From positions 372,001-436,000 of the forward strand of contig OZ287082.1 in assembly GCA_965645245.1 (NCBI GenBank): a stretch of DNA of 64,000 bases. Reading direction: 5' to 3'. Positions 37,268-62,000 of this stretch are shown here, piece by piece. This stretch comes from Massalongia carnosa. Taxonomy: Eukaryota. The number at the start of each line of letters is the position of its first letter. Positions within the stretch are counted from its first letter, which is position 1. Both the position numbers and the translations under genes were made by a program. The notes under the pieces were generated by a model that did no database searches, had not been told where the DNA came from, and worked only from the letters and a program-made list of their open reading frames with translations.

Positions 37268-40200
37268 CGGAAGGAAAATTCTACTAACGGAAGGGGCGAC
37301 CATGAACGAAAATCTCGTACCAAGAAGTGCACAGTGCGAAAGTGAGCATAGAAAGGTGAATGAGTCTCTGGTAATTAAAATCAAAGAGTATCTTGACCGT
37401 GTGGGTAACGTAGGAGACCCGATAGCGTTGCAAATTTTGCAGGAATCGAGAATTGTGCTGGAGGCACAAAATCAATTAGACAAAAAATCGCACGACACCA
37501 CACATGTGGTATCTGCTCTAAATGATATCAAAAGCACTTTACAGAGAAGTGAAAGCAGAATAGAGATCCCAACAGTAAGGAACTATGCCGCCGTCGCCGC
37601 GGCGGGACACCTCAATGAGGGCGGATCTGTGCCGGTTCGAAGCACTCTAAACAACGTAAAGACGCAGAAAGCGAAGGAACAAACACCAAGTATGATCAAA
37701 AGTGCAAGGGAACTCACCATACGAGTGACGAAGAGCGAGGATCGAGAAAGAAAAAAGCAAACGTCCACAAAGGACTTGGTAGAGGCGCTACAGAAGAGAA
37801 ATGCAGGAATAATAGGAGTATCGCGTCTCAACAGTGGAGACATTAGGATACATACCGAAACGGCAGCGATTAAGAAGTCTCTGTATGACAATACGGGCTG
37901 GGTGCGTGAAGTAGCCGCATCGGCAGCGGTGCAAAGGCGTACCTTTGCCATACAGGTACGTGGCGTCAGGATGCAACACATCGACGTCACCAATCAGACG
38001 AGAGCCATTGAGTACCTACATGCCGTTAATGCACGACTGCATGCGGGACTGAAGATCGTAAAGGTCGCTTGGTCCAACAAGGCCATCAGAGAAGGAAAAG
38101 TGCACTCTACGCTGCACATGGAAGTTGAAACTGCACCGATGGCCAACCGGCTCATCAACGAAGGTCTGCTCGTAGACTACGAGATCAAGCACTGTGAAAG
38201 ATTTCACAAAAATAACATACTAGTGCAATGCTTCAACTGCTATAAGTATGGGCATATCAGCAAATGGTGTAAACACCCCACGGCCTGTAGGCGTTGTGCC
38301 GGCGGATATCCTACGCACGAGTGCAATCCCGAGACGACCGGAGCCCACCCCATGTGTGCCACGTGCGAGAAGCCTGGTCACCTAGCGTGGTCCCCTGTGT
38401 GTGTGGTTCGAACGAAGGAGAAGAAGAAAGTAAACGACGCAAGGAAAAGAAAAGCGCATCTATACGAAGCTGAAGGGCTGGCGCTGGCGCCAGCATTCAA
38501 TTTCGGAGCCAGCAACCCCCCAGCAGAGGCAAGGACTACAACGGTAGACCTAGACTTACGGACGGAAGACTTACCTACCACGTGGAGTCTTATCAATGGG
38601 AAAAAAAAGGAAAATATCGCGCACAATAACCCAATCCGCCACACAGGCGAATGAGCCGAGGCTAAACATGAAACAAAATATCGATACCACAATTACTTTA
38701 AAAATGTTGTTTAATACTAGGATCGGAAATAATATTTTGATTAAATTTATTGTTGATAACAAAATCGCGACTAGAAAATGGATGCTAGGTCAGCTCGATG
38801 ACGAAAATATCGAAACCGGAGGTTGGGGAGAGATCGAACAGTAAAATTAGAAATGATTTATGCTGGAATATTTACGAGCTTTACAAAAACAAATTGTAAA
38901 ATCGATATTTCGATTACTAAAGGTTGTTACTAACACGGAGTAAAAACGGGGCAATATTGACGATAGATAGTTGGGTTATAAAGGGTTGATTTATTTGTAA
39001 AATAAAACCATATCTTAAAATAGTTTAGTGTCATAACCTTAGGTTGAATACACTTAATGAATAAATAAAAAAAAAAAAGAATGAGCCGAGGAGTCTATCA
39101 GGTGCCGAGACCGGAATCACATGGAAGGACATCGAGATCATGAACCCGGCAAACAGAATAAGGGCGATGGCGAAGCCCACTCTGGGTAGACCCCCCAACG
39201 CTGTCAATAGTGCCCCCTGCCCCCCTACTACCCTATCTCCTCCCATCCCTCTCCCATCTAAACCAGCAGTCACCCTAACCGCTCCGCCCCCCACCAACCA
39301 TCCCACCGCGACCGCTCCGCAAGGGGCCCACTTGGAAGTACAAATCCCTACCCAATCGAAAACGACTCCCTCGAGAGACATGGATGAAGCTTTATGAAGG
39401 ACAAAAAATTAATTAGCATCCTACAGTACAATGTCAGAAATGATCGCGTAAGTACTATGATACCATTGCTAGCGGATTCAAATATACAGGACTACGACAT
39501 CATAGCAATCCAGGAGCCGTGGCGCAAACCCCACGCTGCGACCACGCTCAGCCCGCATCAAAGCGGCTTTCATCTACTCTATCGGCCAGGAGGTGACACG
39601 AGAGTGTGCTTCTACATCAACGATAAAATAGATCCGGAAAGCGGGAAAGTGGAATTTCCAACCGCTGACATATGCATATTGATATTGCACCCCCGCGAGA
39701 ATGACGGAAGCCACAAGGAAATACATATTCACATCGTCTATAATGCATCACCCACCTTATATTCTTCAAGAGACAGCCCCTCCACCCTCCCAGATGCTCA
39801 ACGCCAGCTCTCCGCCGACGCTCATCACATCTTACTCGGGGATTTTAATCTACACCATCCTTTCTGGAATGGAGCCACCAGACCCACGCAACACGCAGCC
39901 GCGGATCAGCTGCTAGATATAGTCAATGAAGCCAATCTGTCGCTAACCCTGCCAAATGGAACCGTCACATGGGAAGCCCGAAACTCATTCAGCACCATCG
40001 ATTTGGTTTTCATGTCAGAATTCCTAACAGAGAGGCTAATTCACTGCATGTCAAGACCAGAACTCAATCAGTCATCCGATCACATTCCGATATCCTCCCG
40101 TATCTCTTTGGAATGTAAGACACTAATACAGACAAAACGCAGAGCCTGGAAGCTGCTGAACATGGAAAAGTTGAGAACAGCAGAATGCAACGCTCCCCCA

Positions 40201-41823
40201 ATAACACTTCCTTGCACAGTAGAGGAGATTGATCGACAGACGGATAAAATACAAAAGTTCTTACATGAAATAATATCTGCGGCCGTTCCATGGGCAAGGT
40301 CTAGTGCTTATGCAAAACTATTCTGGAACGAGGACTGCAACAACGCCATGAGAGAAACACGCAGAATTCGAAAAATTTGGACAGCCTCTCGAAATATCAA
40401 TGACTGGAAAACGTACATGAAATCGAATGACAAAAAGCAAAAGATAATCAAGAAAGCTAAAACATTGTCATTCCGAAACGAGATCAGTAAAGCGTCTGAA
40501 TCATCTCAGGGCATATGGCGGCTGGCGAAATGGGCAAAGGACAAGAGTCACAAGGCGCGCGAAACACCATAAATGCCAAAACTGAATTTCAACAATCACA
40601 GCGCGAACACCTTTGAAGAGAAGGCTGAAATGCTGAAAGGCATCTTCATTCCTGCTCCGCCTCCGGCGGGTCTACAGGACATACCCGGGTCGGTCTATCC
40701 GGTAGCCTCGGAGTGCCCAACAGTCATAATGAAGAAAGAGGTGCTCACGAACATTCTACGCCTCAAACCTGACACGGCTCCTGGACCGGATGGCATACCC
40801 AACAGAGTTCACAAAGCGTGCTCTGAGACGCTGACAGAGTTGTTAACTCCTCTATTTCAGGCGTGCGTAAATCTGGGATATCACCCGCGAGCATTCAGAA
40901 CAGCGCACACGATAACGCTGAAAAAGGCGGGCAAAGACAATTACGAAACGCCGAAGGCCTATCGCCCGATAGCACTGCTGAATACGCTAGGCAAGGTGAT
41001 GGAAGCCATCATGGCAAGCAAGATCACTCACATGGCCGAAAAGCACGAGTTACTACCAGGCACCCAGATGGGAGCCAGACGGGAAAGGTCTACCGAGTCA
41101 GCACTAGAGCTGTTAACCGAACAGATTCACAAAGTGTGGGGTCAAGGTAATGATAATGTTGCCACGCTGCTCAGCATGGACGTGGCCGGCGCGTACGACA
41201 CGGTTTCACATCAAAGACTGATCCACAATCTTCGAAGAAGAAAAATTCCACAGTGGGTCACCAACTGGATATAATGCTTTTTGAAAAACAGAAGGATCAC
41301 TCTTACGATCAACCGACGAACCACCGACGAGTTTGATGCCAGAACCGGAATTCCACAAGGTTTACCCATCTCTCCCATTCTGTATTTGTTCTACAATGCG
41401 GATTTACTAGACATATGTAACAGGCCCGGCACGAAAACGAGCGGACTCGGATTCGTCGATGACATCAATATACTAGCAAATGGGAAAAGCACGCAAGAAA
41501 ATTGCAGAACGCTAGAAATAATTCACAGAGAATGTGAAAGATGGGCTCTACGGCACGGATCCTTATTTGCTCCGACTAAGTACGAGCTTATTCATTTATC
41601 TAGAAATCCAAAGAAATTTGATTTGACGGCTACTATTAATATAGAAAACAGCCTAATCAAACCAAAAACGGATATAAGAATACTCGGTCTTCAAAATAGA
41701 TACTAAACTTAAGTGGGGTGCTCACATACGGAAAACGCAGGAGAAGATGGTCAAGCAGAGCATGGCCTTAACAAAAATCTCCACGTCTACATGGGGAGCT
41801 TCGTTCGCTAGGGCAAGGCAAGG
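37268..41823 (+). mobile_element. Family-B Tad1-like LINE, 3'-truncated (ORF1 with CCHC knuckles; ORF2 EN-RT with stops)
   Basis: ORF1 from 37302 (QCFNCYKYGHISKWC), resuming after an insertion to 39397. ORF2 from 39394 (QYNVR, IQEPW, GDFNLHH, SDH, FVDD). Stops at 40570 and 41272; frameshift ~41700. Confidence 0.92.
38662..39078 (+). mobile_element. 5'-truncated family-A LINE 3' end inserted into family-B ORF1
   Basis: TSD GAATGAGCCGAGG at 38649-38661 and 39079-39091; poly-A tail; near-identical to the reverse complement of 48361-48775. Confidence 0.93.
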
Positions 41824-42750
41824 AAGCTGACCTAGTATCCATTTTCTTGGAAAGACCACCTATCGAAACACAAGTACCGCAACTTTGATACTCTAAAAAC
41901 TTTCACAGTCAATTGAACATCTCTTTCTCAGTCATTTGAGCTCCTCCAGAGCAAAAACGGACTCAGATTGAGTGTAGGAGAGCTCTAGCAAAGCTCCAGA
42001 AGAGATTTTCTGCTGGTGGCACGCGACAGACGTGATAAAGCGCGCTCAAGAAGTTATAAAAAACAACAAATACCAACAATATCACCAAAAATCGCTCTTT
42101 TTTCTCACTTTCTTCTGTTCTGTTGTCGCATTACCCTCAATTATTACAACAAGAATTATCTACAAAAAATATCTACTGTCGCGGTACTGTACAACAACTG
42201 TCGCGACGACCAACTTTTTTGAAGTTCATTTCTCATTTAAGGTTACGGGAACTTCCGCAAGCTCAAATATTCACAGTATATTTCACGTATAATTTCTGCA
42301 TATACCATTTTAGGCTTTATCGATCTCCATTGAACGGCCGGTCAACAGATCACTGAAAAGAAGGGGAAAAACGTCTGGAATAGGATTATACCAAAGATCC
42401 TATTTCAGATTAATCAGAATAGGAAGTCTCTTATTATCTTACCTTGCCTTAGATCTATTTTTATCGCAAAAAAGCAAAAAAAACCCTTTCATTATTTTCA
42501 ACTATTGTAGTGTCTGGTAAAGGGTTAAATAAGATTTACTGCCTAAGCGAGGAACGGTCTATTTTAACCCGATTAGGATTTATTTGACGAGTTATTGTCA
42601 TATAAATAGGGATAGGAAAGCAAGAGTCGTTAGACCTGTAAATTGGTGTAAATTTCTATTCTGATTAGTACGTCCGGGGAACATCAGAATAAATTATTTG
42701 GTGGTGATAAAAGGGATATTGAAAAGGCATATCGATTTATTTATTAAATC

Positions 42751-44325
42751 ATGTTCAATCCGGTACTCCCTAGGACTCGACGAATTATATCGAGAGCCTC
42801 CCCGGGAACACCCCTGAGCACTCCTCAAAACCCTCCCCAAATGGAATCTCCGGGGCTCTCGTCAGTAGGACTTATAGAAAAATCGCCTGTACTTGACGAG
42901 CCTATGGATCAATCACATGAATATTCGTCCGCCCCGACTACGCCGACCCCAAAAGCAACCAAATTCCCATCTGGACAATTTACTACCAATCTACCCATGC
43001 CATCGTTAAATTCTAATATAGAATTAAGCCCGCCCATCAAACGTAACAAACGAAAAACATTCGACGAACGAGTAGAGGAAAGCCAAGAAGCAATCAATCG
43101 AGCACAATCGATTGGATTACTCAAAACGGCTAAAACCGCGTTATTGAAGTCATTTGTCTTAGATCAAAATCCAGAAACAGCAATAGTCATTGATAATGTC
43201 AATTCCTTATTGACAAAAAAATCAATTAATATCAAAACAACACTAGACATGTTGAATTGGAAATTGGACAAGGTAATTGATCAGACTAGTAATCGAACCT
43301 CAGAAACAACGCGAAAATCGACTCGGGTTCAACAAGTCAATATGACTGAAAATCCAAATAAAGTCGTCAACACGAACGCACGAAAGGAAACCGCCGGGGT
43401 TACGAGTACAAAGGTCAATAACACGCCTCTATCCTGGAGTCAAATGCTTGGAAAAGCAACTGCGAATTCCGAAAACTGGACCACTGTTTCCAGATTGAAA
43501 AATTCGAGTCAAACCTTGAACAAACTCGACAAAACCGACGAATTAAATGCAATCAAACTCAGACGACTGATAATTACACCAAAAATTCAAATCGGCGATA
43601 TCGACTCATTGAAACTTCGAGATCAAATCAACGCGCAATTCAGCAACGCGAAGTTAGATATCGTAATCAACACGGTCGAAAAATCGAAAACCGGTCAGAA
43701 TATCGTTCTCACTACTAGTTCGAAAAACACTGCTGCAGAATTGTTGGAAAACAAATCTATATGGGAACATATGTTCGATGCACAAAGAATTCGAAAAGAC
43801 GAATCCTGGTTTAAAGTGATCGCACATGGAGTAAATATTGCAACGTTTGATCAAAATATGCAATTTTTGCAAAATGAAATCCAGAAATTCAACCTTAACA
43901 TGGAATTGTGCGATTTACCCAGATGGCTAGCGCGAGATCGCGAAAATAAAGTCAATTCTTCGGTCGTTTTGACTTTTAACGATCGAAATCAGGCCTTAAA
44001 CGCGTTAAAAGGCGTAAATATCGCGGGAAAACACTGTGACACGGAAATATTTACTTCCGTTCGTCCGAATACACAATGTATTAATTGTCAAAAATTCGGA
44101 CACAAGCATTATCAGTGTCGAATCAAATCAAAATGCAATATTTGTGCACAAAATCATGAAACACGTAATCATGAATGCATAACATGCAAATCGAAAACTG
44201 CGTGTGCACACGTTGTTGTGAAATGTGCAAACTGCAATAAAAATCATCAATCAAATGATGAACATTGCGAAATGTTTACTGCATTAAATCCACGAAAATC
44301 GGCTGACGAATTATCCGCCTTATAA
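42751..44325 (+). CDS. LINE ORF1 gag-like nucleic-acid-binding protein, 524 aa
   Basis: Open frame; CINCQKFGHKHYQC, CNICAQNHETRNHEC and CANCNKNH knuckles; TAATG overlap with ORF2. Confidence 0.9.
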   Translation: MFNPVLPRTRRIISRASPGTPLSTPQNPPQMESPGLSSVGLIEKSPVLDEPMDQSHEYSSAPTTPTPKATKFPSGQFTTNLPMPSLNSNIELSPPIKRNKRKTFDERVEESQEAINRAQSIGLLKTAKTALLKSFVLDQNPETAIVIDNVNSLLTKKSINIKTTLDMLNWKLDKVIDQTSNRTSETTRKSTRVQQVNMTENPNKVVNTNARKETAGVTSTKVNNTPLSWSQMLGKATANSENWTTVSRLKNSSQTLNKLDKTDELNAIKLRRLIITPKIQIGDIDSLKLRDQINAQFSNAKLDIVINTVEKSKTGQNIVLTTSSKNTAAELLENKSIWEHMFDAQRIRKDESWFKVIAHGVNIATFDQNMQFLQNEIQKFNLNMELCDLPRWLARDRENKVNSSVVLTFNDRNQALNALKGVNIAGKHCDTEIFTSVRPNTQCINCQKFGHKHYQCRIKSKCNICAQNHETRNHECITCKSKTACAHVVVKCANCNKNHQSNDEHCEMFTALNPRKSADELSAL

Positions 44326-47300: not shown

Positions 47301-48337
47301 TATCCAAATTCCAATCAATGAACTCCGATAAATCCCGAGTTTTACTTTATACGGATGGATCAAAAATCGAATTTGCAACGTCTGCAGTCACATTTGCGCC
47401 AATTATGAGGAATTGGAGTAGTATTATCAATAATTTTGATCGATTTATCGAAAAAGATTGTCTGATCAAGTATCATACGATTTCGAAAAGCTGGAAATTA
47501 AGCAAACAGTCAAGCATTAAAAATGCTGAACTGCATGCAATTTTACAAGCAATGAAATGGGTCTATAAATTGTCTAATACTAATATTTTATCGAACTTGG
47601 AAAAAACGATTTGGATTTTTTCTGATAGTATAAACGCGATAAACGAAATTCAGAACTTGAAAAATCATATTTTCGCAAGACAAATTCGAAAGCTCGCAAA
47701 ACGCTTATTTGAAAGCAATTATCAGGTGATTTTGCAATGGGTTCCGAGTCATTCGAATATTACCGAAAACGAAATTGCAGACAAAATAGCAAAGACAGGC
47801 CATAATCAAATCCTAGTCGAGTCCTCGGCTATAACATTTGATTATGTAAAAGATCAAATAAATCAAAATATGCTAACCACATGGACGAATCAATGGCAAC
47901 AATGCAAATCAAAAGGCAAATACTACGAGAAATTCGAAATGAAACCTGGCATATCGAGATTTTATTATTTATCAAACAACTGTTCCAAATTGATATTTGC
48001 TACTATTATGCAATTAAAATTCGGACACGGCTATTTTCGATCATATTTACATCGATTGAAAGATTATAATTCGTCAAAATGCTCAAATCGATGCAATCAA
48101 CGACAAACGCCAGAACACTTGTTATTGAATTGCATTCACTATTTCGATAAAATTCAAAACATGAAACAAAATATCGATACTACGATCAACTTGAATATGT
48201 TGTTTAATACAAAAATCGGAAATGACATTTTGATTAAATTCATTGTCAATAACAAAATCGCGACTAGAAAATGGATACTAGGTCAGCTTGATGACGATAT
48301 TTTCGAAACTGGAGGTTGGGGAGAGATCGAACAGTAA
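44325..48337 (+). pseudogene. LINE ORF2 (APE endonuclease, RT, RNase H, zinc finger), disrupted
   Basis: QEPW, GDFNAH, GSDH, PQGSPISP, FIDD, YTDGSK, FSDS, WVPSH. 1-nt deletion near 45565; stops at 46712 and 47282. Confidence 0.93.
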
Positions 48338-48591
48338 AATCAGAAACGATTTATGCTGAATTTTTTTTTATTTATTCATTAAGTGTATTCAACCTAAGGT
48401 TATGACACTAAACTATTTTAAGATATGGTTTTATTTTACAAATAAATCAACCCTTTATAACCCAACTATCTATCGTCAATATTGCCCCGTTTTTACTCCG
48501 TGTTAGTAACAACCTTTAGTAATCGAAATATCGATTTTAAAATTTGTTTTTGTAAAGCTCGTAAATATTCCAGCATAAATCATTTCTAATT

Positions 48592-51437
48592 TTACTGTTC
48601 GATCTCTCCCCAACCTCCCGTTTCGATATTTTCGTCATCGAGCTGACCTAGCATCCATTTTCTAGTCGCGATTTTGTTATCAACAATAAATTTAATCAAA
48701 ATATTATTTCCGATCCTAGTATTAAACAACATTTTTAAAGTAATTGTGGTATCGATATTTTGTTCATGTTTAGGATTTCATTTGAATAATGTATGCAATT
48801 CATCAATAAGTGTTCTGGCGTTTGACGTTCGTTGCAGCGCCCTGTGCATTTTGACGAATTATAATCTTTCAATCGGTGCAGATATGATCGAAAATAACCG
48901 TGTCCGAATTTCATTTGCATAATAGTCGCAAATATTAATTTCGAACAATTATTCGACAGATAATAAAAACTCGATTTGCCCGGCTGCATTTCGAATTTCT
49001 CATAGTATTTGCCTTTTGATTTGCATTGTTGCCATTGATTCTCCCATGTGGCTAACATATTTCGATTTATTTGACCCTTTACATAATCAAATGTTATTAT
49101 CGAAGACTCGACTAGGATTCGACTATGTCCAGCTTTTGCTGCTTTATCTGCAATTTCATTTTCGACGATTTTCGAATGACTAGGAATCCATTGTAGAACC
49201 ACCTGATAATTGTTTCCGAATAAGCATTTCGAGAATTTTCGAATTTGTTTTGCGTAAGTATGATTTGTCAAGTTCTGAATTTCGTTTATCGCGTTTATGC
49301 TATCGGAAAAAATCCAAATCGTTTTTTCCAAATTGAAGAGAATATTCGCAATTGTCAATTTGTATGCCCATTTTATTGCTTGTAGTATCGCATACAGTTC
49401 AGCGTTTTTAACGCTTGACTGTTTGTTTAATTTCCAGCTTTTCGAAATCGTATGATGTTTGAGGAGACAATCTTTTTCGATAAAACGATTGAAGTTATCG
49501 GTGAAATTGTTCCAATTTCGCATAATTGGTGCAAATGTGACAGCGGAAGTTGAAAACTCGGTTTTTGATCCATCGGTATAGAGTAACATTCGCGATTTAT
49601 CGGCGTTTATTGATTGGATTTTTGATAAAGTTGAATAATAACTTGACTTTGCTGTTTCTTTGGATCTTTCGATTTGGAACTTGATTTTACAAGACGGCTT
49701 CCATGGTTTGATGAAATTATTTACTGATTCGAATTCATCAGTTTTGTGAACTATATCCGAAACGGAATGAAGAATACGGATAAGCTGACTAGGATGAGGT
49801 TTACTCGATTTTTTCTCGTCTTCGTTCCATTCAGCATATCTGTTGTTCCATAAACTAGTGTCAAAACCGATGTTTTCGAATTTCACAGAATAGGTACTGG
49901 GAATTCTTTGATAAATAGGATTATTTTCGGCAATCTTCAATAATCGAATTGCGTATTTTTGATTTTTCATCAACAATCGTAGCTTGGCTGGTAAAATATG
50001 CGATTCAATTTCCATCGCCTGAACAGGCGTGGTTTTGAATGTGCCTAAAATCTTTCGAATCATTCGATTTTGCAGATTCTGAAATAGCTTTTCATATTTC
50101 TTTTGACCGTTATACCAGATTTCTGAGCCATAGTCCGAAATAGGAATAATACATGACAGATAGAGCTGTCTGCATGCAGTTGGCTTTAGTCCCCATTCAG
50201 ACTTCATCAAATTTTGAATTGCGAAAAACGATCGATTTGCAGAAGCAATTCGCGTTTCGACGTGTTTTTTGTAATTTAGTTTTCGGTCTAACCAGACTCC
50301 TAACCATTTGACAGAATTTTTCGGTTCTAGTATTGTCCCGTTTGGTAATTGCACTTTGTCTTTTGATGCATTTCTTGACTTTTCGAAGTGAATCAACTCA
50401 GATTTGTCGTCATCAAATTTGACATTATTCGTTGCGGCCCAATCAAAAGCTATTTTGACGATAATTTCGATTTCTTTGCAATTCTGTGTGGCAGTTTTAT
50501 TTTCGACATATATTGCAACATCGTCTATAAAGCTAGGTGAATGAGCATTGAATTTCATTCGTATTTTCGGAAATAAGTAACGAATATAAATCAGAAATAG
50601 AATTGGCGAAATTGGTGAACCTTGTGGAATTCCAGATTCGATATAGTACGTTTTGCTTTTGTGTTCATCGAATATCAAATTGATCGATCGTTTTGTCATA
50701 AAATGCTTGACCCATTGAATAACTATGCGAGATAAATGCAGCTTTTTCATGACATTTAGCAATTGATTAATCGAAACAAAGTCAAATGCTCCTTTGACAT
50801 CGAGTAATAGACATGATAAAACGTTTTTGTTTCGGTTTGCGATTTCGATATCATGAACGACGTTCATTACCGCATCGATTGCAGAATGATTTTTCCGTCC
50901 GCCCATTTGTTCGGTATCTAACAAGCTCGAATTTTCGCCGAGGTAGGCTAGTCGATTAGCAACTATTTTCTCCGCAATTTTACAAAGACAATTCAGTAAT
51001 GTAATAATTCGATATGATTTTTTTTGGCAGCGAGTAGTCTGGTTTATTAGGTTTTTTTAAAACAGCACCGAGTCCTGTTCGCCAACATAACGGGTGAAAA
51101 CCGATTTGTATAAACTTAGAATAAATAGTAAAAAACACGTTTTTCAATGGTTGAAACGATTTTTGAATTATTGTGAAATTGATTGCATCAGGTCCACATG
51201 ATTTCTTTGGATTAAACAAACTAATCGCATTTTGCAATTCATTTTCGGTTAAATTCGGCCAATTGTTGTCATTTTCGCTGTCTTGATTCGTTAAATCTTC
51301 AATATTATCATCCGTGAACGGGTTTTTTGTGTACATTGCTGACACAAACGCGTCGCATTTGTGATCGAATTGAACATTTAACTTATTTTCATATTGAATA
51401 GGTGGTATTTTTTCGAACATGCGCGGTTTAGTGTATT
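48592..51437 (-). pseudogene. Displaced RT-RNase H part of family-A ORF2
   Basis: Resumes YTKPRMFEK after the insertion; frameshifts near 51020 (A-run) and near 48765. Confidence 0.9.
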
Positions 51438-54400
51438 GATTGATTGATTGATTTTTCTTACGCCGATATGACACCAGCTGAAGCTGGCCCATGCGGGAGA
51501 TACTACATAGGCTATATAAAGGCAGAAAACCCGAACGGGTAAAAAACTGCTCCTGCGTACCAGGTTTGTAGAGGACTCGCTCTTTCCCCGGGTTGATCTC
51601 TACGGTTTGGGAAACCCGCTATACCCGTTATGCGCCTGAGTAAGTGCAAGAATAAAAGAGAAGAAAAGAAAATAAGTAGAAGAAAAAACCAATTCTCCTC
51701 TCATTATTGCTCCGTCATTTGCGCGGCAATGGTGTACTGTGTTAGTATGCCCGTACGCATAAGCCATGCAGTGATTATTTTGATCGCTTTGGGGTCTGTT
51801 ATCAGTTTTTGATAATCCAGCGAGCCAGCTGCACGCAACATATCGATTCTATTATGCAATCCGCAGAACATTATCACATGTTTCGCCGTTTGAAAGCGGC
51901 TTCCGCACAGGCAGGCCGCGGACTCAATGTCTGGCACCTTGCGTTTGAATAGAAAACTCGCTAACCCGATTTTCTCTGTTCTAATTTGAATTGCGAGGGA
52001 GCTTTGCGCCTTATTCAGCAGCTTGTGCGTGTTCAACCTGTTTTTGTGCAATGGACCCGACTGTGCTATTGTTGGATCAAGCGTATGTATTGATTGATAC
52101 GCTATCCATTTGTCCTTCCATTTTTCTTTAAATCGTTTCGCTATGATTCCGTCTCTTTCTCTTTGAAGTGCGGCATATTCTGCTCGTTTTTCCTCTTGTG
52201 CATTCTCCGCTTTTTCCCATGGTGGTGTGCGTTTGGGCTTTCTCTTTGTTGATACTTCAGCTGTCAGCTTGGCCACCCATCTCTGTCTACGAGCTCCCGG
52301 TGTTTCTCCAATAATCCGTTGTCGCCCTCTTTTCCCTTTCAATCTCGTTCTGATTTTCTCGCATGCCTGTTCTATGACTTTTGCCTGACCGTTGTGTTGT
52401 AGCCTCGATCTACCTTTGGCCTGCAGATGATCCAAATGTTGCGTCAATGGACAGATGAATGTTTCCGCCTGTAACACCTCGATGGGTGTGGCCCTGTACG
52501 CTCCGGCTACTACTCGTAAACATTTGTTTTGTACGATCTCGAGTTTGCTTTTCCTCGTGACTTTGACGTGCTTTTGTGTTTCCTCCGGCGTGTGCCATAC
52601 CAGAGAACCATGGGTCATTGCCGGGCGTACCACCGCCGTGTACACGTGACGGGCTTGTAGGAGGGTCGCACCCCAAGTGGCTGCGGCGATTCTAGTCAGC
52701 GCTCTCGTTTGTCTCGTCATTTTCTTCTGTATCTCTTTGTAGTGCGCCGACCAATTGAGCCTCGTGTCTATGTACACCCCCAGCACTCGTACAGATTTCG
52801 TGACGTTGAGTAGTTTGCCGTTTACTGTGAAGGAAGCTTCGAGATTGAATTTCTTGGGATTTTTTGCTAGATGTATGAGCTCGTATTTATGCGGCGCGAA
52901 CACGGAGCCGTGGCGTTTCGCCCATCGTTCGCAATTCTCGTGTATTTCTTTCAATGTTTTGCAATTTTCTTCCGTGGATTTGCCATATGTCAGGATGTTC
53001 ACGTCGTCTACGAATCCTATGCCTGCCGCGTTTGTGCTGGGTCTATTGCAAATGTCTAAGAGGTCCGCATTGTAAAAGAGATATAGAATGGGAGATAGAG
53101 GAGATCCCTGAGGGATTCCTATGCTCAGCGGAAATGCGTTAGTGGTGCGTTGATTAATCGTGAGCGTGGTTTCTCTTTCTTTCAAGAAACTATCCGTCCA
53201 TTTGGCTATCCACTCTGGGATCTTTCGTTTTCTCATGTTGTGAATGAGCCTACGATGAGAGACGGTGTCAAAGGCTCCCGATACGTCTATGCTCAATAGA
53301 GATGCCACTTTATCGTTACCCTGATTCCATACGGTGTGCACTTGTTCAGTGAGCAGCTCCAGTGCTGTTTCCGTTCCGCGGCCCGGCCTTGCACCCATTT
53401 GAGTATCCGGGATCAGTTTAAATTCTTCCGTCAGATGGCTAATTTTCCTTGCTATAATGGATTCCAATGCTTTGCCCAACGTGTTCAACAACGCTATGGG
53501 TCTCCATGCCTTGGGATCCGTATAGTTTCCTTTTCCTGGCTTCTTTAGCGTGATAGTGTTGGCGATTTTAAAGACTTTCGGATGATATCCTTCATTCACA
53601 CATGCTTGAAAAAGTGGTGTCAGCAATTTGATTAGGTTTTCTGAACAGGCTTTGAGAATTCTATTTGTGATTCCATCCGGTCCTGGGGCTTTGTCTGGCT
53701 TTGGCTTTCGCAGCGCCGCCGCCACTTCTTCTTCCGTTATCAGTGCTGGACATTCTGGTGTTGGAGGGTACGAATATCCTACGAGATCCCCGAGATCCGC
53801 GTTAGGAGGAGGGGGAAAGAAGGACTTCTTCAGCATATTTACTCTCTTCTCGAACGTGTCTGCTATCGTATTGGGATTTTGTGCTGTTGCTAACGGGGGC
53901 ATTTTTGGAATTTCTCTTGGTGCGTCGCTTCTGTCTTTGCCCCATTTTGCGAGTCGGAAGAGTCCTGTTCTTGATGCTGCAACTTCGGCCATTTGTTCTC
54001 TGAAATGAAGATTTCTTGCCTTACCGATGATTTTCTGTTTTTTGTCGTTCAATCTGATGTAGTTTTTCCAGTCTGACAGATTTCTTTCCGCCGTCCAGAT
54101 CCTACGAATCCTGCGGGTCTCCTTCGTTGCCTCCTCGCACTCTCTATTCCAGAAGGACTTCGCCTGGGGACTAGGTTTAGACCATGGTACCGCCTCCTGA
54201 ACGATTCTTTTGAGGTAGTCTTGAATATCTGCAGTGTATGCATCAATTTCGTTGGCGCCTCGTACGACGCGTGGTGTGGGGGCATTTCTCTCAACTTCTC
54301 TCAGTTTATTCATGTCCAGGAGTTTCCAGGCTCTTCGGCGGGGAGGCGTAAGGGGTTCACAGGTGAGGCGGAGCCTCGTCGATATTGGTACGTGATCTGA

Positions 54401-54653
54401 GTCTTGATTCAGCTCCGGGACTGTGATACAGTGTTCCAATCTTTCTACGAGATCTTCCGTCATGAACACCAGATCGATGGTGCTGAATGAGTTTCTTGCC
54501 TCCCATGTCACTGTTCCTCTTGGCAGGGTGAGCGAAAGATTTTTACTTTCAATGATGTCTAGTAGCTGTTCGGACGCCTCGTGTTGACCTCGCACTCTCG
54601 CACCTCCCCAATGTGGATGATGAAGGTTGAAATCCCCTAGCAAGATGTGTTCT
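51438..54653 (-). mobile_element. 5'-truncated family-B LINE inserted into family-A ORF2 in the same orientation
   Basis: 13-bp TSD GGTTTAGTGTATT at 51425-51437 and 54654-54666; (TCAA)n tail; 3' stem-loop at 51469-51497. Confidence 0.95.
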
Positions 54654-55837
54654 GGTTTAGTGTATTTATAAGCTGTAAATACGTCTTTATTCGCTGCGTT
54701 TTCGAGGAAAGCCAACCAAGTTTGCTGTTTCGCTTTTCGAATTGCATGAAAGTACTCGATTCGACTATGTCTAAATGTTTGATGACTAAAATAGGACGGA
54801 TTATTCTTCCATTCTCGACGATGTCTACACATGATTTTTCGAAGTCCGGATAAATCTTGCGACCACCAATTTTTCGATTTTGCGCATATTTTTGTCTTCG
54901 GAATAAACATTTCAGCCGCGTTTTTGATAACGTTTTGCAAATATAACGCTGATTCATCAAATTGATAATTGTTCAATAGACTTTGTATTTGGGACTCGTA
55001 GTTTACTGCATTTTCGTCTAGAAACTTCGCGAATTTATCCCAATCGGCTTTATTGCAGTTGTATTTATTCGATAATGCGGTTGCGTGTGACGTCAAGTTC
55101 TTGAAAGACGCGATAAGTTCAAATCGAATAACTTCATGATCTGATCCCGTGACTGCGTTTTCATCGATTGACCAATTTGTAATTGCGTTTTCGATTTTAG
55201 AATTTGCAAATGTTAAATCAATAATAGATGAAGAGTTTCCTGAATGAGCAAAAAATGTATATAGATCAGGCGTATTTATCAAACTACATTTGTTTAATTT
55301 TAACCATTTGACTAGATTTTCTGATCGAATTGCATTTTGAATCTTCGAATTCCACCAGCTATGATGTGCATTGAAATCTCCACATATGACAAATTGATCA
55401 GTTGATATAGGTTGATATTTAACTAAAAGTCGATCGATTGTATATGTTTCTCGATCGTTTAGACTTTTTTCATTGTAAAGGTTAAAGATCTGCACTTTTC
55501 GAACTTCATCAATTGTAATTTCGATAATTTGCAGATCAGTATCGTTTATAAGATCCGTTCTAGGCGTGCATTGTAATTTTGGATTGCATTTTGTAACGAA
55601 TATAGCTACTCTCGGCCGATAAGTCGCTATTTTCGGCATAATACATGTGAATGACGGATGGGAAATTGTTTTTTGATCTCCCGTCCATGGTTCCTGAAAT
55701 AAAACAATATCAACACGATTTAATACTGCATATTCCAGACACGAAATCATTGCATTCGTTGACTTTGCACAATTATGTTGAATAAATTTGACATTTTGTG
55801 TATTTTCGATATTTGTCAACGAATGTTGTCCCGCCAT
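51704..55837 (-). CDS. Chimeric 1377-aa LINE ORF2 (family-A endonuclease fused in frame to family-B partial EN, RT and zinc finger)
   Basis: Uninterrupted ORF; junction ...AYKYTKP|EHILLGDFNLHH...; two GDFN/SDH sets; FVDD; CLCGSRFQTAKHVIMFC. Confidence 0.88.
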   Translation of the reverse strand: MAGQHSLTNIENTQNVKFIQHNCAKSTNAMISCLEYAVLNRVDIVLFQEPWTGDQKTISHPSFTCIMPKIATYRPRVAIFVTKCNPKLQCTPRTDLINDTDLQIIEITIDEVRKVQIFNLYNEKSLNDRETYTIDRLLVKYQPISTDQFVICGDFNAHHSWWNSKIQNAIRSENLVKWLKLNKCSLINTPDLYTFFAHSGNSSSIIDLTFANSKIENAITNWSIDENAVTGSDHEVIRFELIASFKNLTSHATALSNKYNCNKADWDKFAKFLDENAVNYESQIQSLLNNYQFDESALYLQNVIKNAAEMFIPKTKICAKSKNWWSQDLSGLRKIMCRHRREWKNNPSYFSHQTFRHSRIEYFHAIRKAKQQTWLAFLENAANKDVFTAYKYTKPEHILLGDFNLHHPHWGGARVRGQHEASEQLLDIIESKNLSLTLPRGTVTWEARNSFSTIDLVFMTEDLVERLEHCITVPELNQDSDHVPISTRLRLTCEPLTPPRRRAWKLLDMNKLREVERNAPTPRVVRGANEIDAYTADIQDYLKRIVQEAVPWSKPSPQAKSFWNRECEEATKETRRIRRIWTAERNLSDWKNYIRLNDKKQKIIGKARNLHFREQMAEVAASRTGLFRLAKWGKDRSDAPREIPKMPPLATAQNPNTIADTFEKRVNMLKKSFFPPPPNADLGDLVGYSYPPTPECPALITEEEVAAALRKPKPDKAPGPDGITNRILKACSENLIKLLTPLFQACVNEGYHPKVFKIANTITLKKPGKGNYTDPKAWRPIALLNTLGKALESIIARKISHLTEEFKLIPDTQMGARPGRGTETALELLTEQVHTVWNQGNDKVASLLSIDVSGAFDTVSHRRLIHNMRKRKIPEWIAKWTDSFLKERETTLTINQRTTNAFPLSIGIPQGSPLSPILYLFYNADLLDICNRPSTNAAGIGFVDDVNILTYGKSTEENCKTLKEIHENCERWAKRHGSVFAPHKYELIHLAKNPKKFNLEASFTVNGKLLNVTKSVRVLGVYIDTRLNWSAHYKEIQKKMTRQTRALTRIAAATWGATLLQARHVYTAVVRPAMTHGSLVWHTPEETQKHVKVTRKSKLEIVQNKCLRVVAGAYRATPIEVLQAETFICPLTQHLDHLQAKGRSRLQHNGQAKVIEQACEKIRTRLKGKRGRQRIIGETPGARRQRWVAKLTAEVSTKRKPKRTPPWEKAENAQEEKRAEYAALQRERDGIIAKRFKEKWKDKWIAYQSIHTLDPTIAQSGPLHKNRLNTHKLLNKAQSSLAIQIRTEKIGLASFLFKRKVPDIESAACLCGSRFQTAKHVIMFCGLHNRIDMLRAAGSLDYQKLITDPKAIKIITAWLMRTGILTQYTIAAQMTEQ

Positions 55838-57420
55838 TAACCAAGCATTAATTCATCATTCGATTTTCTAGGATTTAGCGAGATAAACATTTCGCAACCT
55901 ATATCGTTCGATTGATGATTTTTGTTGCAATTGACGCATTTCAGAATTGCATGTGCGCATGCGATTTTAGACTTGCATGTTGTGCATTCATGATTATGCG
56001 TTTCATGACTTTGTGCGCATATACTGCATTTTGCCGGACTTTTGCATTGATAATGCTTATGTCCAAATTTCTGACAATTAATACATTGCGTGTTTGGACG
56101 AACGGAAGCAAATATTTCCGTGTCACAATGTCTACCCGCGATATTCAGGCCTCTTAACGCGTTTGACGCTTGATTTTGATTATTGAAAGTCAAAACTACC
56201 GACGACGTGACTTTGTTTTGACGATCCCGAGCAAGCCATCTTGGTAAATCGCATAGTTGCATATTCGAATTGTATTTTTCGATTTCGGTTTGCAAATATT
56301 GCATGTTATTATCGAATAACGAGATATTTACTCCGTGTGCTATGACTTTAAACCAGGATTCGTCTTTTCGAATTCTTTGTGATTCGAAAATGTGTTCCCA
56401 TGAAGATTTATTTTTCAACAATTCTTCGGCATTGTTGTCAGGGCTAGTGGTGAGAACGATATTCTGACCGGTTTTGGACTTTTCAACAGTATTGACGATG
56501 ATGTTTAAATTTGCGTTTTTTAATAGCGCGTTAATTTGATCACGCAACTTCATAGAGTCGATTTGAGCGTCAGGATTTTTCGGTGAAATCACGAGTCGTC
56601 TGGCCTTGATTGCATCAAATCGATCGACTTTGTTCGAATTATGATTCGAACTTTTCCTTTGAATAGTAGTCCAATTTTCGGAGTTTTCGGTTGCTTTTCC
56701 AAGCATTTGACTCCATGTACCGGTTGTGCTAACATTGTTACCAGAGACCCCGGTAGCTCCTTTGCGAATGGTCTGATTTTCGATAATTGAATTTTCGTTC
56801 AATTTAACAACAGGTTTTTGGATTTTTGGACCATTCTGTAGTGGAGTCGTTTGTTGTTGTGACGTTTTTGAGGAAAGATGACTAGTTTGATCAAGTACTA
56901 TGCCCATTTTATAGTTAATCATATCTAAGGATGTTTGTAAATTGATTGATTTTTTCGAAATCAACGAATTAACGTTGTCAATTACGATAGCCGTTTGTGG
57001 ATTTTGGTCCAGTACAAATGATTGCAATAATGGCTTTTTGGCCGACTTTAGAAGCTCAATTGAATTTGCCCGATTGATCGCTTCTTGGCTATCTCTCGAA
57101 TGTTCGTCAAATGTGCGTCTTTTATTTCGTTTGATTGGTGGGCTTGATCCAATGTTTAAGTTCAATGAAGGCATCGGCAAGATAGTGGAAAATGGACCCG
57201 ATGGGAATTTCGTTGCCTTTGGTGTCGGTGTTGACGGGGCTGATGCATATTCGCGAGTTTGATCCATAGGTTCAAGACGGGGTGAGCTCCCTATCAACGC
57301 CACCGGAGATGGTCCCGGGGAGTGTCGGGGGGGGGCCGGGTAAGGGGTCGATAGGGGGGCGGGACCGGCTGGGGGTGGTGTCCTTGGTATATTCCGGCGG
57401 TTCATTACCGCGTTAAACAT
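55837..57420 (-). CDS. LINE ORF1, 527 aa, intact
   Basis: Homologous to 42751..44325; three Cys/His knuckles; TAATG overlap. Confidence 0.9.
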   Translation of the reverse strand: MFNAVMNRRNIPRTPPPAGPAPLSTPYPAPPRHSPGPSPVALIGSSPRLEPMDQTREYASAPSTPTPKATKFPSGPFSTILPMPSLNLNIGSSPPIKRNKRRTFDEHSRDSQEAINRANSIELLKSAKKPLLQSFVLDQNPQTAIVIDNVNSLISKKSINLQTSLDMINYKMGIVLDQTSHLSSKTSQQQTTPLQNGPKIQKPVVKLNENSIIENQTIRKGATGVSGNNVSTTGTWSQMLGKATENSENWTTIQRKSSNHNSNKVDRFDAIKARRLVISPKNPDAQIDSMKLRDQINALLKNANLNIIVNTVEKSKTGQNIVLTTSPDNNAEELLKNKSSWEHIFESQRIRKDESWFKVIAHGVNISLFDNNMQYLQTEIEKYNSNMQLCDLPRWLARDRQNKVTSSVVLTFNNQNQASNALRGLNIAGRHCDTEIFASVRPNTQCINCQKFGHKHYQCKSPAKCSICAQSHETHNHECTTCKSKIACAHAILKCVNCNKNHQSNDIGCEMFISLNPRKSNDELMLG

Positions 57421-58330
57421 GGATTTATAAATAATCGATGTTGCCTTTGCTATATCCCCTTTATCGCCACCAAATAATTTATTCTGACGTTCCCCGGACG
57501 TAATAGTCAGAATAGAGAGTTTTTACACCGATTTACTGGTCTAAAGACTCTTGCTTTCCAAACCCTATTTATTTGACAATAACAAGTCAAATAAATCCTA
57601 GTCGAGTTAAAATAGACCGTTCCTCGCTTAGGCAATAGATCTTATTTAACTCTTTACCTTGACACTACGATATATGGAATATAATAAGAATTTTACGATC
57701 GAACAGAAAAATTTTTATTTTTTTTTTAAAAAATGTTCTTGATCCAGAAATAAAAATCAAGTACAATGAGAGAGAGGAGACTTCCTATTCTGGTTAGCCT
57801 GAAACAGGGCCTTTGGTTTAACCCTATTTCAGACGTTTTTCCCCTTCGTTTCAGCAGATTGTTGGTCGGCAGTTCAACGAAAATCGAAAAAACCCAAAAT
57901 GGAATAGTGTATACGGTACCGGTAACCTTAAATTTCAAATGAAAACCAAGAAGTTTTGTTGTCTCGAGAACAGGTTGTACAGTTACGCGACAGTGATGAT
58001 ATTTTGTAGATAATTTTTGTGATAATAGATGAGATCTATGCGACAATTAAACCGAAGAAATATCGAAAATCGAGCGATTTTTGACGTTGTTGTTGGTGTT
58101 TTTGTGTTTTGTAGATTTTTTGGACGCGCTTTTTGGTTAAGGGGCGGACAGACCGCGAGGAAAACTCTGCAGGAGCAGTGGAAGAGCTCTCCTGTACCCA
58201 ATTCTGATGGGTTTAAGCTTCTGGTAGGCTCAAATGAATGAGAAGAATGAGGAGAATAAGTTGGGAAAGTTTCAGTATATCAAAATATAGGGTACCGATG
58301 TTTTGGGGGTTGGCTTATTGCTGATGAGTG

Positions 58331-59005: not shown

Positions 59006-62000
59006 TATCAAAAGGTAGTATAGTAGATAGAGGATAGAACGCTTTCTTTTGTTCTATATAGTGGGATTAGCTATATTTATAGACAATGTACGGTATCCTA
59101 GTATTAGACTAGCGATACGTCTAGCCATTAGCGTGCGTCATACTCGTGCGGTAGAAGGCGAGTGCGGCTGAAATGAAGTAGCCTGATTTGTACATTCTAA
59201 CACTCCCACTCGGGCACTGAAATAGCACTCCCACATGATAAAGAGAAATTCAATAACTCCCACATACTCCAGTAAAATGTCATGCTTCCCAGTGGATCAC
59301 CTGCAGGTGAGTCAGTGTACTCCGCAGGCTAATGCTGCTGGCGATGTACGAAAACACCCCCACAGGCTCAGCTGTGGGTGATACTTTTTTATTTTTGGGT
59401 TAAGGTCGGATTTTTTACGACAAAAGGCTTCTGGTTTACTCTAAGCCCAAAGCCTTTCGAAAGACAACAAATTTGTCCTTTGGTAGGGCCTTGGTTAGGC
59501 CGTCAGCTACCTGCTCTTCGGTAGGAACATAGCGAAATTCCACTGATTTGTCTTCGATCTTCTCTCTTTGGTAGTGCCATTGGATGTCAATATGCTTACT
59601 CCGCGCGTGTGCCTGGGGATTTTTTGGCCAAAGCCATTGCTCCTTGATTGTCGCAGTGAATGATGATAGCATTTAGGGCGAAAGATGTAGGCAAGCAGGC
59701 AAGGGCTACAGAGGTGCTCTGGGTTTGGAGAGAGTGATTCCCAGGGACTTGAGGTGCTGAAAGTTGGTCGAGAAGACTAGACAGCCAGACGGCTTCCTTG
59801 GTGGCTTGAGTCTGACCCATGTACTCGGCTTCGCATGAAGATAGGGCTACGGTCGGTTGTCGTTTGGAAGACCAGCTAATAGCGCCACTACCCACATTAA
59901 ACACGAAGCCAGAGGTAGACCTTCGGGTATGATGATCTCCGGCCCAATCCGCGTCGGTGTAACCGTTCAAGGGTTGTAATTGACCTTTGTATGTTAACTG
60001 CAACGGAAGAGTGCCCTTGATGTATCGAAAGATGCGTTTGACTGCCTTCCAGTGCGTGTCGGTCGGGTTCGAGGCATAGCGGCTGACCACCGATACGGCG
60101 TAGGCTAAGTCAGGCCTGGTGCCTAGCATAGCATACATGAGAGAGCCCACCGCTGATTGGTAGCGGAGGCGGGAGTCATCTGTGGCCTGATGGCCCTCTG
60201 GTGCAGCCTCCAGTCGCCCATCCATCGGGGTAGCTACGGGGTTAGTGTCCCACATGCCATGGTCGCGTAGTACTTTTTCCAGATAGGCCTGCTGACCAAG
60301 GCGAAGAATCCTATAGCCCGATCCCGAGTTATCGTCATGCCTAGGTAATAATTGATAGGGCCTAAATCAACCATCGAGAACTCGTCGCTCAACAATTTCT
60401 TGACACGTTGTTTCTCGGAAGAATAAGAGCCAGTGATGATTAAATCATCGACGTAAATAGCTACGATAACCCCTTCTTTAACGAAAACGCTAAGGTCGGC
60501 GTTGACTGGAACGAATTCATGAGACTTGAAAAAAGTAGTGATCGTTTCATACCAGATTCTAGACGACTGTTTCAGGCCATAAAGAGCTTTCTTCAACTTG
60601 CAAACTCTCGTTGACCCGTCATCCAGACCGGTTAGTTGCTCCACGTAGATTTCCTCGTCCACCCTTCCGTACAAGAAGGCTGTTTTTACGTCCATTTGGT
60701 GAATTTCCCAATCATTGGCTGCAGCGATAGCGAAGATGGCTTTATAGCTCATTGGCTTCACTACTGAAGCAAAAGTCTCATTGTAGTCAATGCCTTCACG
60801 TTGCTCAAAGCCTCTGACTACCCATCGAGCCTTGTAACGAAGAATCTCGCCAGCCGGGCCTCGTTTGATTTTATAAACCCATTTGGCTCGCAGAGCTTTG
60901 CGGTCCGGGGGCAGCGAGGTGAGGATCCAGGTATCATTTTCGTTGATAGAGTCAATTTCTTCCTGCATTGCCCTTCGCCAATCCTTTTCCTCCCGACTAT
61001 CTACGGCCTGTTTATAGGTTTTAGGCTCGTATGGCTCCGGGTCATTGGCTCGAGCAAGAAGAGCCAAAAGAGCTAGCGGGTCAGGCGAGGGGGCACGAAG
61101 TTTTGGATGCTTAGAGAGAATATCTGCCTGGGACCAAGGCTCAATGGGTAGTTGGTTTGCCAATGCCTCTTGTCCAGCGTTTGATGGGAGAGGTCCAGTG
61201 GGAATTGATTCTATGGATTCATGAGCGTCGACTAAGTCCGTATGAGGGGAGTCCGTATGATGGGTAATTTTTTGCTTTCTTGTGGGCGGTCCTGACTTTC
61301 CAACATGTAGGGCTCTTTTAGTTTGAGAGAATGATAAGGCAGGAGGAGTTGGGGTGTTGTTATCTATCCACTGAACATTGGAATAACGCATGACAGCGCC
61401 CCGTGGATTTATCATTCGATAGATGTGATCGCCTTCGTATCCTACTAAAGTACATTTGGTGGCTCGTTCCTGAAATTTCTTCCATCCGGTGGAGGGCTTA
61501 CGATTTTGCGCATAGCCAGTCTGTCCTATTATCCTTAGATGTCCTAGTTCTGGTGGGCTGCCGGTGTGAGACTCGTAGGGGGTGATGGAGCGTCCCGCAG
61601 TTGGTTGTCGATTTCTTAGGTAGTTGGCAGTGAGAACCATTTCAGCCCAATATTTGATGTCGAGTTTAGCGCCTTCTCGCATGGTGCTGGCTAACTTGTG
61701 AAGCGTTTGACCTAGGCGCTCGGCTGCCCCGTTCATGGGAGGATTTCCCGGTACGGTAGGTTCCCACTGAATGCCATGCTCGTTTCTGAAATTCTCGAAG
61801 TCTTTGGAGTCACACTCACCCCCACAGTCCGATCGCAAGCGTTTAATTCGTTTGTCCCCATATTCATTTTGCTTCTTGTAGTTTTTAAAGGATTGAAGGA
61901 CTCCGTTTTTGACGCGCAGTAAGGTGACGTGGGACCGTTTATCGAAATCGCAAAGAAAGGTCCCTATATATTTGGCACCATTCAAGGCTTCTGGGAAAGG

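Follow-up and report, generated by a model that had tools for sequence, protein, structure and literature searches.

The exchange of modules between LINEs, which involves promoters, ORF1, endonuclease, RNase H, and 3' ends, is mostly deduced from phylogenies, long after the event. The 64,000-nt stretch of Massalongia carnosa DNA considered here (the window; contig OZ287082.1, positions 372,001 to 436,000) contains a copy of one LINE family, A, into whose ORF2 a copy of another family, B, is inserted in frame, and it raises the question of whether the resulting chimera is the founder of a mosaic LINE family or the product of a chance nested insertion. A fresh open chimera of two distant families would represent a convenient natural substrate for asking if a foreign endonuclease and ORF1 can drive the RT and the 3' end of another family, and it is also suited to asking if a leftover half domain is tolerated.

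Organization of the hybrid unit

The unit joins the 5'UTR, ORF1, and endonuclease of an A copy (A1) to the RT, zinc finger, and 3' end of B (Table 1), in agreement with the layout proposed in the preliminary description; the succession of A 5'UTR, 527-aa ORF1, TAATG (the overlap between the ORF1 stop and the ORF2 start), and stop-free 1377-aa ORF2 is entirely seen on the minus strand. The junction between A and B at 54653/54654 reads ...AATACACTAAACC followed by AGAACACATCTTG. The A-family 5' end is located at about 58316–58320, where the match to contigs of the sequencing runs X5 and X6 stops, at 58316 and 58320, and the contigs continue with unlike sequence; further A copies within the window align starting at unit position 72. 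At the opposite end, the (AATC)n tail of B was placed at 51435–51453 by TRF.

Table 1. Features of the hybrid unit and of the displaced part of the A copy.
Feature	Positions	Strand	Description
A1 5'UTR	57421..58315	-	895 nt; ORF1 ATG (start 57420) directly downstream
A1 ORF1	55837..57420	-	527 aa, open; exact sequence = P0063
Hybrid ORF2	51704..55837	-	1377 aa, stop-free; A residues 1-395 + B residues 143-1124; exact sequence = P0049
A-derived ORF2 part	54654..55837	-	aa 1-395; complete APE-type endonuclease (Pfam stretch to aa 237) + ~155 aa linker
TSD upstream copy	54654..54666	-	13 bp, AATACACTAAACC
B insert	51438..54653	-	3216 bp; half endonuclease, linker, RT, C-terminal CCHC, 3'UTR, tail
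B 3'UTR	51438..51703	-	short GC-rich hairpin near end + (AATC)n tail
TSD downstream copy	51425..51437	-	13 bp, AATACACTAAACC, identical to upstream copy
Displaced A1 ORF2 remainder	48595..51424	-	RT, RNase H, C-terminal zinc finger; two frame changes

Pfam recognizes two endonuclease stretches in the hybrid ORF2, together with RVT_1 at aa 766–1022, and the translation, read by eye, shows the motifs QHN, QEPW, GDFNAH, IDLTF, SDH, and FVDD as well as the C-terminal CCHC, so that both sources agree with the motifs, half endonuclease, B RT, and zinc finger reported previously. ORF1 gives zero Pfam matches and shows, by eye in its translation, three CCHC-like knuckles close to the C-terminus. In the displaced A ORF, Pfam finds RVT_1 and RNase_H (PF00075, aa 445–599), and the two frameshifts described earlier lie near 51021 and near 48757. 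Apart from the hybrid ORF2, the window has two ORFs of at least 600 aa, a piece of copia gag (600 aa) and the displaced A piece (729 aa), which bears out the view that no other LINE in it is ORF-complete. Copia, gypsy, DDE-transposon, and LINE fragments are nested around the unit.

The insertion and the age of its two partners

The locus is a real, very recent nested target-primed insertion of a 5'-truncated B element in the ORF2 of A. The features of target-primed reverse transcription are present, namely 5' truncation to varying lengths, a tail at the 3' end, and a TSD. The 13-mer AATACACTAAACC is also found at the homologous site of uninterrupted A copies (36805–36817 and, with one mismatch, 45496–45508), with four matches vs. 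0.09 expected by chance. Two uninterrupted A copies lie in the window, and elsewhere P0058, P0078, P0079, and P0080 stay A past residue 395. The B insert begins inside the endonuclease, at codon 143 of a 1124-codon ORF2, and contigs of runs X1 and X4 extend past 54653 with extra letters that translate to residues 133–142 of P0001, the full-length B ORF2 (1124 aa). The signature of APE-type LINEs, endonuclease followed by RT in one ORF (PF03372/PF14529 and PF00078), is found in the hybrid, in P0001, and in P0013 and other A-type proteins. The perfect duplication and the 54653/54654 junction bear out the earlier claim that B, with its 13-bp TSD, lies inside A-ORF2 in the same orientation and frame, for which the joint prior is 1 in 6.

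Family B is young. From residue 143 of P0001 onwards, hybrid aa 396–1377 are identical to it at 979 of 982 positions, and the exact P0001 sequence is recorded on eight contigs in the protein collection. The listed members of the 90% cluster of the hybrid include ten B copies, 99.4–100% identical, of which two are full-length (1124 aa) and eight are shorter (963, 919, 673, 432, 359, 304, 257, and 204 aa); P0053 is a B-type fragment of 114 aa with 90% identity. Over the B ORF, contigs of X5 and X6 give zero cover. The private residues of the B part (S553, I577, and L596) are grouped in aa 553–596 of the B linker; all three changes relative to P0001 are nonsynonymous, a number too small for a selection test, and on this count the B part gives no sign of constraint. 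RNase H is absent from P0001 and from P0002, the closest relative tested, and present in P0008, a more distant B-like relative; the loss of RNase H, previously ascribed to the fusion, characterizes the B lineage itself. A and B share 24% identity over the endonuclease region and 30% over the RT.

Behind ORF2, the 3' stem-loop and tail of B described before are both present, the hairpin with a weak fold score and the tail as (AATC)n. The fold of the B 3'UTR is only weakly better than that of shuffled sequences (z-score −2.2, with 6 of 200 shuffles folding equally well), and a second B-like element (29090–29250) conserves its terminal 80 nt or so, which leaves two sequences for covariation. The stem-loop may be the structure recognized by the B RT.

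Family A is somewhat older. The 90% cluster of P0063 has 67 members; the 14 others listed are 94.1–98.7% identical to A1 ORF1 (1.3–5.9% different), which bears three residues private with respect to them. Identity of the A-derived ORF2 part is 97% with P0058 and 98% with P0079. Four inserted bp cause the frameshift near 51020 in the displaced part; P0079 and P0080 continue across this site, and A-family contigs of X1 and X5 are without the four letters at 51018, so that by these comparisons the decay of A1 is ordinary. By simple arithmetic, the chance that none of three indels falls in the 2.8 kb of ORF1 and endonuclease is about 0.2, and the open 5' half of A vs. the two frameshifts of its displaced half is thus not a significant difference. 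The A1 5'UTR is also without one A behind 57432, 12 nt upstream of the ORF1 ATG, which is carried by the contigs of all four runs compared. Repeat-induced point mutation was considered as a cause of the A1/A2 divergence and rejected (transitions:transversions 379:305 and 254:118; TpA/ApT about 0.6; (CpA+TpG)/(ApC+GpT) 1.2–1.3).

No full-length ORF2 of the A family was found in the protein collection, in which the best near-length match is 51% identical and the longest A ORF2 fragment among the matches listed has 753 aa; for this reason, no long ORF2 other than that of the hybrid was seen downstream of an A ORF1. Among the relatives one alone is named, a basidiomycete hypothetical protein with 24% identity. 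By its domain content, element A is presumably a Tad1-like fungal LINE with RNase H: its RNase H is downstream of the RT and its ORF1 has CCHC knuckles. Like Tad1-like LINEs, A presents ORF1 and then APE endonuclease, RT, RNase H, and a C-terminal zinc finger, with relatives that share the Pfam set; in contrast, element B and its nearest relatives are without RNase H.

Copy number of the junction

The copies of the junction were counted in the protein collection, in the alignments of relatives, in metagenome_contigs, and in the contigs of X1, X4, X5, and X6, which were the runs compared among the 12 of 16 that carry some of the stretch. The exact hybrid protein, P0049, is recorded on one contig vs. 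eight for P0001; its 90% cluster comprises 26 proteins, and of the 16 listed it alone has the A-to-B join. Of 12 near-length relatives, none covers more than 53% of hybrid aa 250–560, none of 41 shorter database relatives crosses 395/396, and the 26-mer spanning the junction has no match in metagenome_contigs. Among the matches listed in the contigs of the four runs, none bridges 54653/54654 and none shows an empty site.

The private residues S553, I577, and L596 are shared by none of the five other B cluster members covering those sites, and at the corresponding positions 54181, 54109, and 54052 contigs of X1 and X4, which drop rare variants, carry only the family letter. Daughter copies truncated downstream of the junction would have the look of ordinary B and could be marked only by these three substitutions.

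As far as these data reach, the chimera is probably present at a single locus without daughter copies, and the hybrid unit appears never to have been mobilized. The same breakpoint at several loci, which is the mark of a mosaic LINE family, was not found in the sequences examined. The preliminary description had presented the unit as one that may be, or may have been, mobile, and had suggested looking for its junction at other loci: a second copy was not found in the protein collection, in metagenome_contigs, or among relatives, and the junction was found once across all searches, with no sign of mobility. The data fit instead the reservation expressed in that description, according to which the junction might be unique and an in-frame fusion has a 1-in-3 chance anyway.

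A probable chance insertion and competing explanations

A recent chance nested insertion, confined to one locus and not giving rise to a new mobile family, is probably the origin of the chimera. A copy of the active family B (endonuclease, RT, and zinc finger, without RNase H) was 5'-truncated during target-primed reverse transcription and landed by chance, in the same orientation and reading frame, in the ORF2 of the resident, somewhat older A1 (ORF1, endonuclease, RT, RNase H, and zinc finger). The fused ORF has stayed open since the B insert hardly differs from the main sequence of its family and the A1 copy is still young; as the youth of both parts accounts for the open frame, selection on the fusion need not be invoked. 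Such an origin needs only chance and a repeat-rich region with family B actively inserting.

Nested LINE-in-LINE insertions are ordinary in repeat-rich regions, and the locus shares with them a 5'-truncated insert with tail and TSD inside another element; in contrast to them, here the two partners happen to agree in orientation and frame and are still young enough for their ORFs to be open, with the result that the product looks autonomous. As it stands, the locus demonstrates only that in-frame fusions arise, and spread is not evidenced. A counterpoint to the reading by chance is that the unit retains 5'UTR, ORF1, complete endonuclease, and RT with its own 3' end, which is all that a LINE is thought to need.

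This completeness leads to an alternative, which is unlikely, in which the chimera is competent, or was so at birth, and is too young for copies or silenced. It accords with the open ORF1, endonuclease, and RT, with the very recent date of the insert (three aa differences over 982 residues and identical TSD copies), and with the failure to find a signature of repeat-induced point mutation, which would kill repeats. Against it are the three private changes, which all alter amino acids and are grouped in one part of the B linker, and the A missing upstream of the A1 ORF1 ATG and found in the contigs of all four runs; the insertion of a half endonuclease may also be harmful. It is improbable that a founder of a new LINE lineage has been caught at birth here, with A regaining autonomy through one in-frame nested insertion by taking RT, zinc finger, and 3' recognition end from the active, RNase-H-less B and with the vestigial half endonuclease tolerated in the linker. 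If this were true, with transcription from the A promoter and a working ORF2 protein, the locus would be direct natural evidence for cross-family domain shuffling of non-LTR elements by insertion into genomic copies.

A still bolder reading, in which the chimera is competent and has already made daughters, as founder of a mosaic family in which B supplies the RT and 3' end and A the promoter, ORF1, and endonuclease that drive them, is very unlikely. Every part is open with intact motifs, and the B RT retains its own 3'UTR and tail, whose terminal portion is the one conserved in the second B-like element; however, a second junction is found neither among near-length and shorter relatives nor in the metagenome, the hybrid stands alone in its cluster, its exact protein is on a single contig vs. 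eight for the B master, and its private substitutions are unshared. Moreover, the fusion is not a clean domain swap, with a half endonuclease and linker (approximately B residues 143–380) placed between the A linker and the B RT, where the extra half endonuclease could disturb folding, and the two families are distant in both domains.

Two known systems lend plausibility to a propagating chimera. For mosaic L1 families of mouse and rat (e.g., Tf and Gf), the published model has a young 3' part acquiring an older 5' terminus at the place where it inserts (PMC3600994). As in the present case, a younger RT and 3' end are joined to an older 5'UTR, ORF1, and ORF2 start by insertion at a genomic copy; in contrast, many copies share one breakpoint in those families, which are close subfamilies fused in register, whereas here the breakpoint was met once and distant families (24–30% identity) are fused out of register with about 240 residues duplicated. 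The duplicated residues correspond to the half endonuclease and linker. Human-mouse L1 chimeras engineered by exchanging ORF1, endonuclease, or RT retain activity (PMC3091869), and thus modules of diverged LINEs can cooperate, which is the premise of the idea first put forward for this locus. Those chimeras are precise swaps within the L1 clade followed in cell assays; the present one is a natural, imprecise fusion in another kind of LINE. A keyword literature search, not exhaustive, brought up no paper describing a LINE chimera that arose naturally, in frame, between families.

An assembly artefact, with two repeat families mis-joined, is extremely improbable: A and B are both multi-copy, no contig among the matches listed bridges the junction, and the three private B-part letters are not seen in run contigs, but a mis-join would not leave an insert that is flanked by two perfect 13-bp copies of the A target and ends exactly in the B tail, with A resuming in register; in addition, the 5' truncation is a clean break from full-length B, and the hybrid protein is recorded on a 2.02-Mb contig.

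P0080, which is 100% identical over aa 271–395 and lies on a contig of similar size, was also considered as the orthologous empty allele and rejected; since its downstream parts share no more than 96% and 92% identity with the displaced A part, it is a paralogue.

Anatomy of the nested insertion

The feature is a real, recent and apparently single-copy nested insertion that is in frame by chance, and the locus is best filed as a LINE-in-LINE insertion: a 5'-truncated copy of the young LINE family B lies within ORF2 of A1, a copy of the older LINE family A. The anatomy given in the preliminary description (A 5'UTR, intact ORF1, TAATG, stop-free ORF2 of 1377 aa, duplication and tail) is borne out in every detail, and all the motifs that it named are present in the hybrid translation; in TAATG, one A is common to the stop codon of ORF1 and the ATG that starts ORF2.

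Main features of the window
Feature	Position	Strand	Remark
A1, copy of LINE family A	58315 to ~48595	minus	
A1 5'UTR	5' part of A1	minus	895 nt
A1 ORF1	55837..57420	minus	527 aa
Hybrid ORF2	51704..55837	minus	1377 aa, no stop, in-frame fusion
B insert	51438..54653	minus	3216 bp, different LINE breaking A sequence at 54653/54654
(AATC)n tail closing B insert	51435-51453	minus	TRF
Target-site duplication AATACACTAAACC	54654-54666 and 51425-51437	minus	two perfect copies, either side of B insert
A2, near full-length A copy	41925-48365	plus	77-87% identical to A1
copia	2578-6177 and 59596-61985		
gypsy	19609-21108		
DDE_1 transposase	14789-15964		

The 13-mer of the duplication is also found at the homologous site of two uninterrupted A copies of the window (36805-36817 and, with one mismatch, 45496-45508), where A sequence continues past it, and A1 is back in register beyond the downstream duplication copy. 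This structure is the signature of target-primed insertion and does not fit mis-assembly or recombination. The truncation point, codon 143, is fixed by contigs of the sequencing runs X1 and X4, which match B as far as 54653; the letters beyond it encode residues 133-142 of P0001, the full-length B ORF2.

Pfam recognizes in the hybrid two endonuclease stretches (best aa 116-237) and RVT_1 (aa 766-1022), and in the displaced A part, the remainder of A1 ORF2 beyond the insert, RVT_1 and RNase_H; the two frameshifts previously assigned to this part correspond to frame changes near 51021 and near 48757. The hybrid is, as claimed, the sole LINE of the window with all ORFs open, in agreement with an ORF scan at >=600 aa, in which the remaining ORFs are only a 600-aa copia gag piece and a 729-aa displaced A piece. 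A 170-aa ORF on the minus strand (50980-51492) starts from an ATG in the B 3' hairpin region, crosses the tail and duplication copy in frame to enter the displaced A ORF2, and stops just beyond the first frameshift; this is probably a coincidence.

Uniqueness of the junction and absence of RNase H

The key test, already named in the preliminary description, is the search for further copies of the junction, which was sought in a protein collection, one DNA scan and sequencing-run contigs. The exact hybrid (P0049) occurs in 1 contig, and it alone carries the A-to-B join among the 16 members listed of the 26 in its cluster; two A-type ORF2 fragments, P0058 and P0078, reach the insertion site and continue as A sequence. 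Residues 250-560 gave 12 matches in the 757-2410 aa size range, with coverage of the region never above 53%, and residues 330-460 gave 41 among proteins of 30-756 aa, none of which crosses 395/396 in pairwise BLASTP (A-type matches end at or before residue 395 and B-type ones begin at 393-397 or later); these searches compare cluster representatives, which can hide their cluster members. The junction 26-mer has no match in metagenome_contigs. The private residues S553, I577 and L596 of the hybrid (nucleotides 54181, 54109 and 54052) are present in none of the five other cluster members covering them, and the X1 and X4 contigs, which drop rare variants, have only the family letter at these sites. 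Within the scope searched (16/26 cluster members, representatives and contigs), the junction thus appears unique.

The Pfam scan detects no RNase H in P0001 or its closest relative P0002, and the precomputed Pfam lists include none for P0001-P0007 (1032-1152 aa); the more distant B-like P0008-P0010 have it in these lists, as confirmed for P0008 by Pfam scan. The loss is thus older than the fusion and a trait of the B lineage. Of the earlier interpretation, therefore, the same-frame nested insertion yielding an ORF-complete hybrid stands, while a mobile hybrid with its junction at other loci, and RNase H loss as a product of the fusion, find no confirmation.

Age of the two families and the open frame

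The B part of the hybrid (aa 396-1377) is identical to P0001 (1124 aa) at 979/982 positions, from residue 143 of the latter, and the exact P0001 sequence occurs in 8 contigs. Among the members listed, its 90% cluster contains at least two further full-length copies and at least eight truncated ones (963, 919, 673, 432, 359, 304, 257 and 204 aa), each with an identity of 99.4-100%, besides one 114-aa fragment that is 90% identical. Family B is thus very young and in all likelihood active, and the insert is typical of its 5'-truncated copies. Its three amino-acid differences from the family (54052, 54109, 54181) sit inside 130 bp, are all protein-changing transversions and could have arisen by mutation after the insertion, by error during reverse transcription or as mistakes in the assembly consensus.

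Family A, though older than B, is not old: 14 other listed members of the 67 in the 90% cluster of A1 ORF1 are 94.1-98.7% identical to it, ORF2 fragments elsewhere are 97-98% identical to A1, and no signature of repeat-induced point mutation was found in A copies. Compared with its family, A1 has lost 1 nt in the 5'UTR behind 57432 (contigs of all four runs X1, X4, X5 and X6) and gained 4 nt at 51018 (contigs of X1 and X5), a gain that causes the first frameshift; the A-type fragments P0079 and P0080 are uninterrupted across that site. With the second frameshift near 48757 these make three indels, and by arithmetic from the coordinates the chance that none falls in the 2.8 kb of ORF1 and endonuclease is ~0.2, so that the contrast between the intact 5' half and the broken displaced half is not telling. 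For an insert in A ORF2, a match of both orientation and frame has a prior of 1 in 6, and a frame open over both parts is what their youth alone would predict.

No A-family ORF2 of >=757 aa was found in the protein collection (best near-length relative 51% identical), the longest fragment seen being P0079 (753 aa, cluster of 126 members); the hybrid is therefore the sole case seen of an A ORF1 followed by a long ORF2, and family A may no longer include any autonomous copy. A2 and A1 are arranged tail to tail, ~200 bp apart (48366-48562); in A2, ORF1 is open (524 aa, 42751..44325), and ORF2 starts by the same one-base overlap and is in pieces of 431, 375 and 339 aa.

Prospects of the chimera and neighbouring elements

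B inserted into A1 by target-primed reverse transcription, with truncation at codon 143. Transcription from the A promoter would yield an RNA that encodes both A ORF1 and the fused ORF2, with the B 3' end as its possible terminus. In the fused protein, the A endonuclease would come first, complete and with ~155 aa of its linker, followed by a redundant half endonuclease and linker (roughly B residues 143-380 by alignment register) and then by the RT and zinc finger of B. A second B-like element (29090-29250), whose tail is likewise a short repeat, shares the terminal ~80 nt of the B 3'UTR with their short GC-rich hairpin; the fold is only weakly better than shuffles, and two sequences are too few to show covariation. 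A and B are distant, with 24% identity across the endonuclease region and 30% across the RT. Their domains are imprecisely joined, so retrotransposition competence is possible but unlikely; a functional chimera would equip the A 5' half with a new engine, an outcome considered very improbable.

Mosaic L1 families of mouse join a younger 3' part to an older 5' part, and three mechanisms are considered for their origin, among them recombination at the insertion site (PMC3600994); engineered human-mouse L1 chimeras show that ORF1, endonuclease and RT are exchangeable (PMC3091869). The locus resembles the first step of the mouse model (PMC3600994); however, a mosaic family is defined by several copies sharing one breakpoint, and here the junction is seen once. 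In a non-exhaustive keyword search of the literature, no natural in-frame chimera between LINE families came up.

The B-like fragment at 29090-31098 (minus) is ~72-76% identical to B and has a 599-aa RT ORF; its short GC-rich hairpin departs from that of B in both arms, and its tail is (AAATC)-like. Contigs of X5, a run whose organism label differs, align to a portion of the bin 51422-51682, which takes in the B 3'UTR, the tail and 16 nt belonging to A, and diverge at 51676, with no cover of the B ORF; should the aligned portion lie in the 3'UTR, the source could be a non-autonomous element or a different LINE with the 3' end of B. A third LINE (37302-41700, plus), distantly B-like (67-74% identical in patches), has a 450-aa ORF lacking a Pfam match, which may be its ORF1; two endonuclease ORFs (39394..40572 and 40573..41274) come after it. 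Beside copia, gypsy, the DDE_1 transposase and LINEs, the window has only one gene noticed as not belonging to a transposon, a 568-aa ORF (7469-9175, minus) with a long array of ankyrin repeats and, at its N-terminus, a winged-helix match of the GPIID_WHD type.
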